39,975 bases of DNA. Source: Gemmatimonadales bacterium (GTDB taxonomy: Bacteria; Gemmatimonadota; Gemmatimonadetes; Gemmatimonadales; GWC2-71-9). Numbering within the stretch: position 1 is the stretch's first letter; each line of letters opens with the position of its first letter. Below are positions 1-6,000 of the stretch, in pieces. The position numbers were made by a program. The stretch covers positions 1-39,975 of the forward strand of contig JBFJHJ010000030.1 in the NCBI GenBank assembly GCA_041613315.1, written 5' to 3'.

Positions 1-3000
1 CACATCCCCGGTATTGTCGAGCCCATTGGCCTTGCCCTCGTACGCGGTATCCGCCTTCGACACGGAGCGCCAGTCCAGCACCACGCCGTTCACGATCAAG
101 CTGTCGTTGGATATCTCCCGATAGTAGGAGTGGATCGAGTAGGGCGGCGCGGCTTGGGTACCGTACAGCCGGCGCGCGATCGAGTCGCGCGGCAGGTTCG
201 CGGTGTCGAGCGGAGGGGTGTTCGCGTACATCACGAGGAACACGGGCACGGTCAGCGTACCGCGGAGTACCCCGCCCGCACTGACGTTCGCGCGCTGTGG
301 CGCGGCGGCCGCGCGGCCCGCGCCCGCGGCCCGCTGGCGTACCCGCGAGGCCGACACGGCCTGGCCGCGCTGCACCCAGCCGTTCTCGGTGGAGAACTGA
401 AACGCGTTCGGCTTCTGGCGGAGCGTTCGGTAGTAGCCGGCGGGCGGCGTCGCACCGCCGCGCAGGCGGCCCAGCGCTTCGACGTCGGTCTGGGCCGACA
501 ACGCGGGCGGGGACAGCACGGCAGCCCAGGCCGCGAGGACGGCGACCCGGCGTGCGCGGAGCGCAAGGACTTGGCGCGGCTGCAGATCACGTCTCATGAC
601 TGATCCGAACCTAAGCGGGACGCCCGTCGGCGGCGGTGTGCTGTGTCACGGGGCACGGTGCGCAGGCGTCCGCCGGCTCAGAATCGGATCTCGTGGACGA
701 TGAGGGCGCTCGCGGTGCCAAGCGCGGCACCCGCGACCACGTCGGAGGGGAAGTGCTTGGCGGCCGCGACGCGCAGCATGGCCACGCCGGCGGCGGACGA
801 CAGCGCGGCAATGCGGAGCGGCAGGCTCCGGTCCCGGCCGTCGAGCCAGTAGCTGACACCGATGGCGAATGCAGCCGCGGCGTGGCCCGAGGGGAACGAC
901 CGGCGGCTCTCGAGATGGCCGACCGCACCAAGGGCATCGTCGGTATAGAGGACGGGACGGTTGCGGGCCGTGAGCGCTTTGGTCAGTTCGGCCGCGGCGA
1001 TCGCCCACGACGCGGCCTCGATCGTCGCGGCGGTGCGCCGGACGCCGGCGCGCTCCAGCCCCCGGGACCACACGGTGGCGCCGGCGAGCGCCGCGAGCGT
1101 TACGGTGCTCACGATCGATAGGTCGTTGTGCACGGGTCGGATCGCCCAGCGGTCGAACGCTGGGACGCCGCCCGGATCGCAGGGGGCACAGGAAGGGGGA
1201 CCGTCGTGGATGTGGAGGATGCGAGGTGCGGCATACGCGAGCCCGCTGCCGGCGACCGATGCCACCGTGCCATAGCCGACGGGGGTCGAGTCGGCGCGTT
1301 CCTGGGCAGCGGCGGGAGCGACTAAGCCGCACCAGAACAGCAAGATAGCCCAAGCTGGCCCGGCCTTGTGTCGGGGCCTGGTCAGCGGTACTATCGTAGA
1401 CTCCAAAGCGCCGGGGGCGCCGGCGCCGGGACGTTCACTTCTTGCCCGCTGAGGACTCGTGGACACGCAGACTCTCCAGCAAGTCGCCCTGTTTGCCAAG
1501 TGTAAGAACTATACCAAAGCCCGCGAAGTCCAGGCGGCCGGTTTGTATCCGTACTTCAAGCCGATCTCGAAGTCCGAAGACACGGTCGTCGTCATCGAGG
1601 GCAGAGAGCGGATCATGATGGGGTCCAACAACTACTTGGGCCTCACCCATCATCCCAAGGTACTCGAGGCGGCGAAGAACGCGTTGGAGCGCTACGGGTC
1701 TGGCTGCACGGGGAGCCGGTTTCTGAACGGCACGCTCGACCTTCACGAACTGCTCGAGGCGCGCCTCGCCGAGTTCTTCGGCAAGGAGTCCGCGCTCGTG
1801 TTCTCCACGGGTTACCAGGCCAACCTCGGCCTCATTTCCTGCCTCGTGGGTCGCGGCGACATCGTACTCATCGACAAGCTCGACCACGCGTCCATCGTTG
1901 ACGGGGCGAAGATGGCGTTCGGGGAGACGGTGCGCTTCGGGCACGGCAACCTGGAGCAGTTAGAACGCCTGCTGCACAAGCACCAGCAGCGCGGGCAACT
2001 GATCGTCGTGGACGGCGTGTACTCCATGGAGGGCGACATCGCCGATGTCCCCCGCATCCTCAAGCTCGCTCAGCGCTATGGGGCGGCCTTCGCCGTCGAC
2101 GACGCGCACTCGGTCGGCGTCCTCGGCCCTCGCGGCGACGGCACCGCCGCGCACTTTGGCCTGGTGGACGAGGTGGACATCATCGTGGGCACGTTCTCCA
2201 AGTCGCTGGCGTCCATCGGCGGGTTTGTCGCAGCCTCCGAGGGGGTGATTCACTTCCTCAAGCACAACAGTCGGCCCCTGATGTTCACGGCCGCGCTCCC
2301 GCCCGCCAACACCGCCGGCGTGATCGCGGCCCTCGACGTGTTGCAGCAGGAGCCCGAGCGCCGCGCGCGCCTGTGGGCGAACACGCGCCGCTTCCAGGAA
2401 GGCTGCCGGAGCCTCGGGTTCGACATCGGACCGACCGAAACGCCGATCATTCCGGTCCTGATCGGCACCCTGGAAAAGACCTTCATGTTCTGGCGTCGGC
2501 TGTTCGAAGGCGGCGTGTTCACGAATCCGGTCGTGCCCCCAGCCGTGCCGCCCGACCAATGCCGGCTGCGGACGTCGCTCATCGCCACCCACACCCCCGA
2601 CCAGATCGATCACGCCCTGGAGACGCTGGGCCGGCTCGGCAAGGAGATGGGGGTCATTTGACGCCGGAGGTGGTCGTGCGGCCGGTCACGACGGCCGCCG
2701 ACCTCGAACGGTTCATCGCCTTTCCGTACGCACTCCACCGGGGGGACCCGCTCTGGGTCCCCCAGTTGCGTATGAACGTCCGCACGCTCCTGTCACGCGA
2801 CAAGAACCCGTTCTTCACGCACGCCGACGCGGCGTACTTCCTGGCGCTCAGGCGGACCGGCGGACCGGCGCATCGTGGCGCCGTGTCCGAACGCCCGACC
2901 ACCTTACCTACCTCTCGCCGGGGTGGGGAGGTGTGGGAGACGGTGGGGCGGATCGCCGCGATCCACAACCGCGCCCACAACGCGTTCCACGAGGACACGG

Positions 3001-6000
3001 TCGGCTTCTTCGGCTGCTTCGAGTGCGTGGACGACCGGTCGGTAGCGGAGGCGCTGTTCGCCGCCGCGGCACAGTGGCTGAAGGAGCGCGGCCTCACGGT
3101 GATGCGGGGGCCGGCCTCGCTCTCCACCAATGACGAGTGCGGCCTCCTGGTGGAGGGCTTCGACACGCCACCGACCGTCCTCAATCCGCACAACCCCCGA
3201 TACTACGTCTCCCTCGCGGAGCGCACCGGCTTCACGAAGGCGATGGACCTCTATCAGTACCAGACGGTGAGCCCGCAGATTCCCGAGCGACTCCTCAAGG
3301 GCGCCCGTCGCATCGCGGAGCGCAAGAAGCTGACGCTCCGGCGCATCGACATGAAGCACTTCGCCGACGAGGTGGACCGGATCAAGTACATCTACAACGC
3401 GGCGTGGGAGCGCAACTGGGGCTTCGTGCCCATGTCCGACGCCGAGATCGACCACCTGGCCAAGCAGTTGAAGCCGGTGGTCGTGCCGGACCTCATCGTC
3501 TTTGTCGAACGGGAAGGCGAGCCGATCGGGTTCGCGGCGGCGCTGCCCGATCTCAACGTCGCGCTCAAGCGCAATCCGTCCGGCCGGCTGTTTCCGGGCA
3601 TCCTCAAGATCCTGTGGGCGGCCAGGAGCGTCACGCGCATCCGCATCTTGCTCTTGGGGCTCCTCAAGGACTACCGGCGCACCGGGGCCGACGCGCTCAT
3701 GTACCAGTGGATCTGGGAGAAGGGCTACGCCCTGGGGTACCGGTGGGCCGAGGCGGGCTGGATCCTCGAGAACAACATCGCGATGAAGAACGGCATCGAG
3801 GGTATCGGGTTCCAGCACTACAAGACACTGAGGATGTACGACCGCGCCCTGTGAGGGTCTTCATCACCGGCGGCACCGGCTTCGTCGGCTCCCATCTCGT
3901 TGAGACATTGCGCGCCCGGGGCGACGAGGTCGTCTGTCTCGTCCGCGACCCCGCCAAATGCGCCCGCGTGTTCCCCGATCGTCCTCCGTTGAGCGTCGTC
4001 GGCACCCTGGCCGACGACGCCGCGCTGCGGGAGGGCCTCCGGGGCGCCGACATCGTGTTTCATCTCGCCGGTATCATCGCCGCGCGCAGCCGGGCCGAGT
4101 ACTTCACCGTCAACGCCGACGCGACGCGACACCTGGCCGCGCTCGCGGCCCGGGAGGCGCCCGCCACGCGATTCGTCTATGTGAGCAGCCTGGCGGCGGC
4201 GGGGCCGGTGACCCGCGGTCGCGTCCGCACGGAAGCCGAGCCACATGCTCCGGTGAGCGACTACGGGCGCAGCAAGCTCGCCGGTGAAGATGCCGTCCGG
4301 GAGAGCGGCGTTCCATGGACGATCGTGCGGCCGCCCACCGTCTACGGACCGCGTGACACCGAACTGGCGCGCGTGTTCAGCCTCGCCCGGTGGGGCGTGC
4401 TTCCGGTGTTCGGCGCTCCCCATCAGGAGCTGTCCGTGATCCACGCGCGGGATCTCGCCGCCGCTCTGGTGGCCGCCGCGGGCCCGCGCACCAGGGACCG
4501 CGTCTACTTCGCCACGCATCCCTCGATACTCACGGCACGTGAGCTGGTCGAGGCGATTTACCGCGCCGTCGCGCGCGCGCGTGGACGGGACGCCTCGAAG
4601 CGACCGGCGGTCGTGCCACTGCCCGCGTGGTTCACGCGGGCGGCGCTTGCCGTCACGGGGGCGGCCGCCCGACTGGCCGGGCGCTCGACGGTGCTCTCCT
4701 CCGACAAGGGAAACGAATTCCTGGCCGAGGCCTGGACGTGCTCGCCGGAGGCGCTCGGCCGGGACACGGGATGGACGGCCGGCATCGACCACCAGTCGGG
4801 ACTCGACGAAACGGCCCGCTGGTACCGCGAGCACGGCATTCTGTGAGAGCGGTGGACAAGCTGATCGCCGGATACGTCGTATTCGTCACGGCGGTGATCG
4901 TCCTGCGCGGCGGGCTCGCCACGCCGGCGAACTGGTGGCTGCTGGGGATGCACGGCCTGATCGGGCTGCTCCTCTATCTGTTCACGCGGCTCGGGCCGGA
5001 CGCCCGTGCGGGCCGGTTCCTTCACGACGTATACCCGCTGATCCTCCTCGTGCCGCTCTACGGCGAGATCGGGGTGCTCAGCGTTCAGCTCGGCGTCGAC
5101 AGCACGTTCGCCCGAGACGCCATCGTGCAGCGCTGGGAGGCCACGCTCTTCGGCGGCCAGGTCTCCCACGACTGGATCCGCCGGGCGCCATCGGTATTCT
5201 GGTCCGGATTGTTGCATCTGGCGTACTTCGCCTACTACCCGATCGTGACGCTGGGCCCAATCCTTCTCATCGTGCGGGGTCGGCGCAGCGCGGCGCGTCG
5301 AGTGCTGCTGGCGACGATGCTGGCGTTCGTGATGTGCTACGTGATCTTCGTGCTCTTTCCAGTCGCGGGCCCGAACTACGCCTTCCCGCACCCCACCGGC
5401 GCCGTGCGCGACGTGTGGAGCGCCCGCCTGGTGTACGCGGTCCTGGCAGGAGGCTCGTCGTTCGGGGCCGCCTTTCCGTCGTCGCACGTGGCGGCGACGC
5501 TCGCCTCCGTGGGAGCGCTGGCCCGTGAGTGGCGCGGCCTCGCGGCGGGCTTCGCACTCCCGGCGCTCCTCCTCACGCTGGGCACCGTGTACTGCCAGAT
5601 GCATTACGCCGTGGACGCGCTGAGCGGTGTCGCGGTGGGCGCGCTCTCGGTGTGGGCGGGTACGAAGCTGGCGGCGTCGGAACATCCCGCGGAGGAGCGG
5701 CGGCACGATCCGTCGCCGCCCCACGCCGCGTGAGGTCACTCGTGATGATGTTCCGCCGTAGCCGCGGGCGCGCCGCCCGACGCAATCTCGGCGTACGTGC
5801 CTCGCACCTGTTGCAGGTAGTGCTGGCGGTCAAGCGCGTAGAGGGGGTCCGCCGCGTTCGCCCAGGGCCACATCCGAGCCGTGGACGGCATGAAGACACC
5901 ACCCACGACGCCCATCCCCCCTGCCACCAAGGTGTCGCCCGTCGGGTTCTCGTACGTCACGCTCACCCGGTACGTGTGCTCGGGAACGATCTTGACGCCG

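Follow-up and report, generated by a model that had tools for sequence, protein, structure and literature searches.

A Gemmatimonadales ceramide operon ending in a PAP2_3 membrane protein, a candidate inositol-phosphoceramide synthase

Positions 1459-5733 of the window, a stretch of 39,975 nucleotides from a Gemmatimonadales bacterium, hold four linked genes whose products most likely build ceramide and go on to add an inositol-phosphate headgroup to it. The operon is made up of spt, for serine palmitoyltransferase (1459-2661, GTG start, 400 aa), bcerS, for a bacterial ceramide synthase of the YghO family (2658-3854, TTG start, 398 aa), a gene for a cerR-like NAD(P)-dependent reductase (3851-4846, GTG start, 331 aa), and a gene for a PAP2_3 (PF14378) membrane phosphotransferase, the candidate phosphosphingolipid synthase (4843-5733, GTG start, 296 aa). 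All four genes lie on the + strand, and successive genes overlap by 4 nt, with each start placed over the preceding TGA. To the reading as a whole, a ceramide operon with an Aur1-like PAP2_3 enzyme that makes inositol-phosphoceramide (IPC) from phosphatidylinositol (PI), we assign a probability of about 0.6. GC3 of the four ORFs ranges from 0.85 to 0.92, and a scan for promoters and terminators gave no signal above chance.

The overlapping reading frames and their conserved order bear out the operon described in an earlier note on this DNA, and PAP2_3 is indeed its regular fourth gene, as had been claimed: the full order spt-bcerS-cerR-PAP2_3 was found in 70 of 80 named loci, while eight end at a contig edge and two differ. 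Rearranged but still linked genes occur as cerR-spt-bcerS-PAP2_3 in four loci of family f4, and in G282 and G076 the PAP2_3 gene is divergent, beside or near bcerS. Among 300 other genomes, 156 have a PAP2_3 match at E<1e-20, and bCerS is present in 155 of these; a strong PAP2_3 match was found in 1 of 113 genomes lacking bCerS. Several bCerS-positive genomes carry the PAP2_3 gene unlinked to the ceramide genes. Three loci are missing it and have GT4 glycosyltransferases adjoining the ceramide genes, which we counted in favour of the main reading.

Spt is closer to proven serine palmitoyltransferases (SPTs) than to BioF, Kbl or HemA. Its best PDB match is serine palmitoyltransferase (8guh/3a2b, E 2e-134, 451 bits), with KBL (1fc4) at only 281 bits, and its best NCBIfam model is NF047600 for SPT at 541 bits (below the cut-off of 640), compared with 399 for BioF and 390 for Kbl. 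A second spt paralogue, 40% identical, is located on contig C11. Judged by sequence, bCerS is a full-length acyltransferase of the YghO/CC_1154 family. It shares 33-40% identity across 98-100% of its length with proteins annotated as YghO, dATP pyrophosphohydrolase or GNAT, and has no match in Pfam, NCBIfam or PDB; PMC9386255 groups yghO with Caulobacter CC_1154. The cerR-like protein matches PF01370 (E 1.5e-32) and was assigned only by its conserved position beside spt and bcerS, with no comparison sequence from a characterised CerR. A complete ceramide operon, as previously proposed, is thus supported by PDB, NCBIfam and YghO matches for Spt and bCerS and by position for cerR. These three core gene types are common to the Caulobacter/Rhodobacteria pathway (Spt, bCerS CC_1154/YghO and CerR CC_1164). 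Here, in contrast, they form one overlapped operon that has a CFB-type Spt and an extra PAP2_3 gene but lacks genes for ACP and acyl-CoA synthetase. It is very improbable that they make a different amino-acid-based lipid on which the PAP2_3 protein acts; the Spt score below the cut-off, the positional assignment of CerR and the existence of paralogous reductase-PAP2_3-reductase clusters without spt would fit such a product, but among solved structures an SPT is far ahead as the best match of Spt, and bCerS belongs to the YghO family over its full length.

The fourth protein matches PF14378 at 64.5 bits and has about eight membrane helices, a triad of H215, H254 and D258, and the motifs AFPSSH at 210-215 and YCQMHYxxD at 250-258. 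Every one of 120 close homologues keeps A210-H215, Y250, Q252, H254, Y255 and D258 unchanged. The earlier claim of invariant motifs holds for these, but not family-wide, since Q252 varies in operonic orthologues from other families (YGGFHY, YGRFHY or YGQFHY); across 100 distant alignment rows, only Y128, P177, P212, S213, H215, H254, D258 and G262 are invariant. The H-H-D triad was rejected as a sign of a synthase because the phosphatases LpxE, PgpB and G6PC1 have the same triad (PMC13133130). With LpxE and PgpB, the canonical PAP2 phosphatases, the protein also shares a five-helix core, but it differs in its additional N-terminal helices and in the absence of both the phosphatase C1 motif K-x6-RP and the C3 Arg before H-x3-D. 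Both elements serve monoester binding. They are likewise missing among the conserved columns of the 120 homologues, whereas they are carried by our control, the canonical PAP2 encoded upstream of spt, and by other phosphatase-type matches. This second PAP2 gene, divergent and with canonical phosphatase motifs, was absent from the earlier note.

It is accordingly unlikely that the protein is a lipid phosphate phosphatase of the same pathway, acting for example on PIP, PIP-ceramide or a ceramide-phosphate intermediate. A PIP phosphatase is wanted because the family lacks PgpA (a PgpA-type enzyme was found in just 1 of 60 family genomes), and the protein has the PAP2 fold with LpxE near in Z. The lack of PgpA also weighs against the main reading, since it leaves the step from PIP to PI with no enzyme assigned to it. 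Yet it lacks the motifs that the canonical PAP2 of the same loci retains, and in the tree the PAP2_3 rows separate from canonical PAP2 as a clade of their own (support 100/100).

The structure model (pLDDT 94.5) again has the IPC synthase 9vj4 as Foldseek rank 1 (E 1.3e-4, TM 0.59), in keeping with the closest fold reported earlier from a high-pLDDT model; 9ivc ranks second and LpxE third. In the VIA comparison, Aur1 gives Z 17.4 and rmsd 6.5 over 267 aligned residues that include the N-terminal helices, versus Z 16.0 and rmsd 2.9 for LpxE over 162 residues that leave these helices unaligned. The triad aligns with H255/H294/D298 of Saccharomyces Aur1 (PDB 9vj4, 9ivc), and besides the overall fold and triad positions, the stretches SS..GAAFPSxH and Y..xHY..D are common to both proteins. 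In contrast, identity is 16-17%, Aur1 H293 is replaced by Met (MHY, not HHYxxD), PPWY reads GPNY, and the Gemmatimonadales operon holds no Kei1-like partner gene. A profile search found Aur1 at E 0.004 and LpxE at E 0.045, while a PDB search with the single sequence gave no relevant match at E<=10. This distance from proven IPC synthases counts against the main reading.

The reaction had been put forward as eukaryote-style and new to bacteria, which does not stand: in PMC9246714 and PMC8791184, the Aur1 homologue BT_1522 of B. thetaiotaomicron was demonstrated in 2022 to be a bacterial IPC synthase by a knockout that (nearly) abolishes PI-dihydroceramide. Like our protein, BT_1522 is a membrane enzyme of PF14378 that has an H-H-D triad but no C1 motif, and the MIPS and PIP synthase (PIPS) of the two bacteria are closely related. 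However, it sits in an inositol cluster (PIPS, GtrA, PgpA, MIPS) and not in a ceramide operon, retains PPWY and HHY, and is far nearer to Aur1, which its orthologue matches at E 1.5e-14. The PAP2_3 protein and this orthologue share 19% identity (probability 89, E 2e-6), and trees that do not include Aur1 place BT_1522 in a clade separate from Gemmatimonadales PAP2_3 (95/92 and 99/99). By these alignments and trees the Gemmatimonadales protein is not an orthologue of BT_1522, which makes it no less likely to work like Aur1 and BT_1522. A BT_1522-like gene occurs in 6 of 301 Gemmatimonadota genomes, strong in 2, and was rejected on these counts as the phylum's real IPC synthase.

We infer the enzyme activities, membrane topology and donor as follows. 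Spt would join serine to an acyl donor, bCerS would attach the N-acyl chain, and CerR would reduce the ketone, the established bacterial path to (dihydro)ceramide. The PAP2_3 protein, which very likely transfers a phospho-headgroup to ceramide, would act like Aur1 and BT_1522 at the periplasmic face of the inner membrane; its catalytic loops are poor in Lys/Arg and therefore probably periplasmic. H254, activated by D258, would attack PI, so that diacylglycerol leaves and inositol-phosphate is held, and H215 would activate the ceramide 1-hydroxyl, which would accept the inositol-phosphate to yield inositol-phosphoceramide. The ping-pong mechanism described for Aur1 should in principle be reversible, and direction cannot be read from genome context. 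An enzyme that mainly runs the reverse exchange or phosphodiester hydrolysis, and thereby turns phosphosphingolipid or PI back into ceramide or diacylglycerol, is nonetheless highly improbable, as the PAP2_3 gene stands last in a biosynthetic operon, matching the reaction order, and the scarcity of strong BT_1522-like genes leaves no alternative synthase evident.

The PI donor would be supplied by an unlinked MIPS and PIP-synthase pair. As noted earlier for inositol-3-phosphate synthase and PIP synthase, MIPS and CDP-alcohol transferase genes were found elsewhere in the genome, overlapped on contig C16. Gemmatimonadota MIPS is 57% identical to the BT_1526 orthologue, and PIPS is 40% identical to the BT_1523 orthologue. 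MIPS is present in 280 of 301 Gemmatimonadota genomes, including a family mostly without bCerS, and its presence was rejected as an argument for an inositol headgroup because it is near-universal. In family f2, MIPS was found in 62 of 70 genomes, bCerS in 10 and strong PAP2_3 matches in 6, all of them bCerS-positive. Since most f2 genomes have MIPS without the PAP2_3 gene, PI synthesis is independent of this gene, which further argues against a phosphatase.

The headgroup of the Gemmatimonadales lineage is probably inositol. The earlier arguments for it, the triad and MIPS, do not point to inositol, but the claim gains from the loss of the PAP2_3 gene together with the PI genes on three independent occasions. 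In G042, G205 and G312, PIPS-MIPS is deleted mid-contig and the ceramide operon ends at cerR with no PAP2_3 gene, while the ceramide genes and phosphatidylserine decarboxylase (PSD) are retained; G337, the sister of G312, carries the PI genes as well as the PAP2_3 gene. The three genomes do not form one clade, and their independence rests on starred tree branches that force three changes. With the PE genes kept, these co-losses favour inositol as the headgroup, and the chance of 3/3 absences at a 7-10% background is roughly 0.0004-0.001. The 17 PIPS-less genomes among 330 comprise 7 with whole or partial MIPS, the 3 clean deletions, and 7 that are gaps or uninformative. The link to PI supply is thus suggestive, in three lineages only, and the co-loss would also be expected of a phosphatase. 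Five genomes (G324, G361, G397, G411 and G483) keep the PAP2_3 gene with PI genes not found, and were set aside as assembly gaps because their PI block either runs into a contig end or is wholly missing. G162, G296 and G027 were rejected as MIPS-less genomes owing to assembly breaks. The PAP2_3 gene is lost or broken although PI genes are kept in G143, G263 (remnant) and G126 (fragments).

A different donor, PE or PG or several, would give ethanolamine- or glycerol-phosphoceramide by the same phosphotransfer to ceramide. PE should be available, since 59 of the 60 family genomes encode its synthesis (PSD), and a PgsA-like gene occurs in the bacterium's own genome (83% complete); there PSD and PgpA were not found, for PSD probably a gap given its relatives. 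PMC11796370 describes trypanosome paralogues that vary in headgroup, with one residue tuning EPC versus SM/EPC. Such a donor is rather unlikely here, as the PAP2_3 gene was lost with PIPS-MIPS in three independent lineages that kept PSD.

With IPC synthesis already known in gut Bacteroides, the Gemmatimonadales enzyme belongs to a separate, uncharacterised family. What is new here is the presence of bCerS in nearly every genome with a strong PAP2_3 homologue, the three co-losses, and a clade separate from that of BT_1522 which takes in a gut Bacteroidales gene linked to cerR. In the literature searched, we found no report of a PAP2 gene inside a bCerS operon and none of Gemmatimonadota sphingolipids, although the phylum may figure in a bCerS survey (PMC8891067) or among the 38 phyla of a Black Sea paper (PMC11334938). 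If the inositol reading is true, inositol-phosphoceramide, known mostly from fungi, plants and protists, would be a product of a widespread phylum as well, the reading of such lipids as soil or sediment markers would be affected, and bacteria would have two enzyme families for the Aur1 reaction.

Of more practical use is the relative in Bacteroidales, a single named gene behind a cerR-like gene. CerR-linked Bacteroidales PAP2_3 genes nest in the Gemmatimonadales clade (98/92); the example from Bacteroides finegoldii, WP_237923849.1, gives an hhalign probability of 99.8 (E 3e-30). They share the PVAGP, AFPSSH and YxQxHY motifs, but are about 325 aa long with a longer periplasmic loop and, where examined, do not adjoin spt or bcerS. 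PE-DHC is produced by every Bacteroides tested (PMC10191378). In vesicles of B. thetaiotaomicron, ethanolamine-phosphoceramide ranks among the top two sphingolipids by abundance, and the same study found no match for an EPC synthase (PMC8791184). The literature searched reports no Bacteroides PE-ceramide synthase gene. These points, which also count for a PE donor in Gemmatimonadales, suggest that the clade members in Bacteroidales may use a headgroup other than inositol and that the cerR-linked gene may encode an ethanolamine-phosphoceramide synthase. More tentatively, the clade could be a second bacterial phosphosphingolipid synthase family, distinct from BT_1522, and its headgroup would be switchable, being inositol in Gemmatimonadales. 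The gut Bacteroidales members would make ethanolamine-phosphoceramide, or PI-ceramide in Phocaeicola vulgatus, which lacks BT_1522. Bacteroides fragilis forms no inositol lipids. In all four Bacteroidales records having upstream DNA, the PAP2_3 gene lies directly downstream of the cerR-like gene.

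An operon of four genes occupies the forward strand of the window (contig C30, from a genome of 2.63 Mb that is 83% complete), at the place given in the earlier note: spt (serine palmitoyltransferase, 1459-2661), bcerS (bacterial ceramide synthase, 2658-3854), cerR (ceramide reductase-like, 3851-4846) and a PAP2_3 gene (4843-5733), whose product is a candidate phosphosphingolipid synthase, probably for inositol-phosphoceramide (IPC). Every gene overlaps the preceding stop by 4 bases, and GC3 lies between 0.85 and 0.92. The top solved-structure match of Spt is a serine palmitoyltransferase (451 bits vs 281 for KBL), and the CFB SPT model ranks first in NCBIfam with 541 bits, below its cut-off of 640. 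bCerS is a YghO-family protein over its full length (33-40% identity), and Caulobacter CC_1154 and yghO are listed together (PMC9386255). Family and operon position suggest that the third gene encodes a CerR-like reductase.

A second PAP2 gene on the reverse strand (678 to about 1406; start uncertain, with the reading frame open to 1499) diverges from spt; 13 of 80 related loci have it at this position. It carries the canonical phosphatase motifs K-x6-RP, FPSGH and R-x5-H-x3-D and might serve the ceramide pathway as a lipid phosphatase, but its link to the pathway is loose. Downstream, a convergent reverse-strand gene (5736 to about 7055) ends beside the operon; it encodes a probably secreted protein that found no match in Pfam or NCBIfam, and 14 of 80 loci have it close to the operon. 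A cupredoxin gene (7658-8251) is near the operon in 64 of 80.

The fourth protein matches PF14378, and its H215, H254 and D258 align with H255, H294 and D298 of Aur1. This triad is essential in Aur1 and is also found in LpxE, PgpB and G6PC1 (PMC13133130), so it cannot separate a synthase from a phosphatase. A more telling feature is that the fourth protein lacks K-x6-RP and the C3 Arg, both present in the upstream PAP2 protein and in most other phosphatase-type matches. In phosphatases these two elements have a role in monoester binding. The structure model has a pLDDT of 94.5, and Aur1 is its first Foldseek match (E 1.3e-4). VIA likewise places Aur1 first (Z 17.4, rmsd 6.5, 267 aligned); LpxE follows at a short distance (Z 16.0, rmsd 2.9, 162 aligned), the longer alignment with Aur1 being due to the N-terminal helices of the fourth protein. 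Across homologues, loops 84-118, 173-213 and 251-256 are poor in Lys/Arg (0-0.07 per residue) compared with loops 48-60, 145-153 and 226-232 (0.20-0.42), which probably places the active site on the side of the periplasm, the compartment in which Caulobacter CerR acts (PMC11087976). In chained alignments, the invariant Y128 falls at Aur1 H157. Since a Tyr at this position is tied to weak aureobasidin binding (PMC12122681), aureobasidin may be a poor assay control.

The earlier note predicted a eukaryote-style headgroup transfer to ceramide in a bacterium. In bacteria the reaction is already known from BT_1522 of B. thetaiotaomicron, which was identified through Aur1 homology and whose deletion leaves PI-dihydroceramide (PI-DHC; PI, phosphatidylinositol) absent or below 1% (PMC9246714, PMC8791184). 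For comparison we used the PAP2_3 protein of a BT_1522-1526-type cluster from a metagenome. This protein matches Aur1 at E 1.5e-14, whereas a single-sequence search of the PDB gave no comparable Aur1 match for the fourth protein. The two share 19% identity and fall into separate groups in trees from which Aur1 was left out and which carried composition warnings. By these sequence comparisons, the fourth protein is not a BT_1522 orthologue. Our literature search found no report of Gemmatimonadota sphingolipids or of this gene arrangement, and no mention of the phylum in the main text of PMC11334938, whose 38-phylum list lies outside the text covered.

The named loci compared are the best 80 of 582 matches, and 78 of them have titles that name Gemmatimonadota taxa; the full order spt-bcerS-cerR-PAP2_3 is present in 70, eight are cut by contig ends and two differ. 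A match to the fourth protein occurs in 164 of 300 phylum genomes, or 156 once eight weak matches (E>1e-20) are excluded. bCerS is present in 155 of these 156, the lone exception (G279) having a YTQNHY-type paralogue as its match; conversely, 155 of 187 bCerS-positive genomes have a strong match. The Fisher value for this co-occurrence overstates the case, because related genomes are not independent. Unpublished genomes contribute to such tallies and to no individual claim. Linkage is kept in the rearranged order of family f4 (cerR-spt-bcerS-PAP2_3) and where the fourth gene is divergent (G282, G076); it is lost in G083, G113, G277, G068, G112 and G290. In loci without the fourth gene, GT4 glycosyltransferases adjoin the ceramide genes (G049, G236, G187), although G282 has a GT4 together with the fourth gene. 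In G223 (L253:4127-9364 and L248:7248-8393), which also lacks the fourth gene, the ceramide operon includes a PF04488 glycosyltransferase gene and a sulfotransferase gene, and a BT_1522-like gene (39%) lies elsewhere; the product is possibly a glycosylated or sulfated IPC. G076 encodes a 1647-aa AMP-binding, acyl-CoA dehydrogenase and Spt-like fusion (L242:606-5549) beside PAP2_3, bcerS and MBOAT genes. LPG_synthase_TM (PF03706) genes, possibly lipid flippases for these pathways, are repeatedly found next to ceramide operons, to PAP2_3 paralogues and to the BT_1522 cluster (L038, L039, L059, L062, L157).

Regarding the headgroup, both candidate routes are common in the family: inositol-3-phosphate synthase (MIPS) in 120 of 125 and PIP synthase (PIPS) in 313 of 330 for PI, and phosphatidylserine decarboxylase (PSD) in 59 of 60 for PE. 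The source genome also has a PgsA-like gene. MIPS is still seen in seven of the 17 genomes without PIPS, and the ten lacking both were sorted by flanking genes. G042, G205 and G312 show a clean deletion, in which the genes that normally flank PIPS-MIPS lie side by side in mid-contig. All three retain PSD and spt-bcerS-cerR, and the fourth gene is absent from the operon, with no orthologue found elsewhere in these genomes; G205 keeps only a YTQNHY paralogue. They occupy three places in the Spt-bCerS-CerR tree, and G337, sister to G312, holds the PI genes and the fourth gene. In five further genomes, which keep the fourth gene, the PIPS-MIPS block is interrupted by a contig end or absent altogether; the remaining two are uninformative. 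The distribution is that of a gene that needs both ceramide and PI, and the three co-loss events are suggestive. Loss together with the PI genes would equally be expected of a PIP phosphatase, but most genomes of family f2 have MIPS without the fourth gene. With transfer to ceramide as the probable reaction, PIP-ceramide is also a conceivable product, as no enzyme is assigned to the PIP-to-PI step (PgpA in 1 of 60 genomes). Loss of the fourth gene with PI genes kept (G143, G263, G126) fits a dispensable end step; in G126 the gene is in pieces (L053:6404-7228) and in G263 a short remnant persists (L056:6623-6763), the PI genes being intact. The YTQNHY paralogues form a clade whose genes flank cerR-like reductase genes or lie between two of them, in loci that have neither spt nor bcerS (L063, L065, L066, L245, L250), and their retention in PI-less G205 suggests that they probably act on another substrate.

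A PAP2_3 protein of Phocaeicola massiliensis is much closer to the fourth protein than BT_1522 is (probability 99.8, E 3e-30); it has 5975 database matches, and the few members that carry names include P. vulgatus and Bacteroides. Its pairing with a cerR-like gene is conserved in gut Bacteroidales. The gene directly follows a reductase gene in B. finegoldii, Prevotella sp. oral taxon 299, P. massiliensis and one unverified record (pairs at L299:4003-5966 in B. finegoldii, L300:2942-4855, L301:3012-4888 and L302:2009-3195), and the best match of the B. finegoldii reductase in the source genome is the window's cerR. These PAP2_3 proteins nest among the operonic fourth genes (support 98/92). All Bacteroides tested produce PE-dihydroceramide (PMC10191378), Sartorio et al. 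did not identify a match to an EPC synthase (PMC8791184), and P. vulgatus produces PI-DHC although it lacks BT_1522 (PMC9246714). Together with the cerR linkage and the tree position, this makes the Bacteroidales proteins candidates for the PE-ceramide synthase or for the PI-DHC synthase of P. vulgatus.
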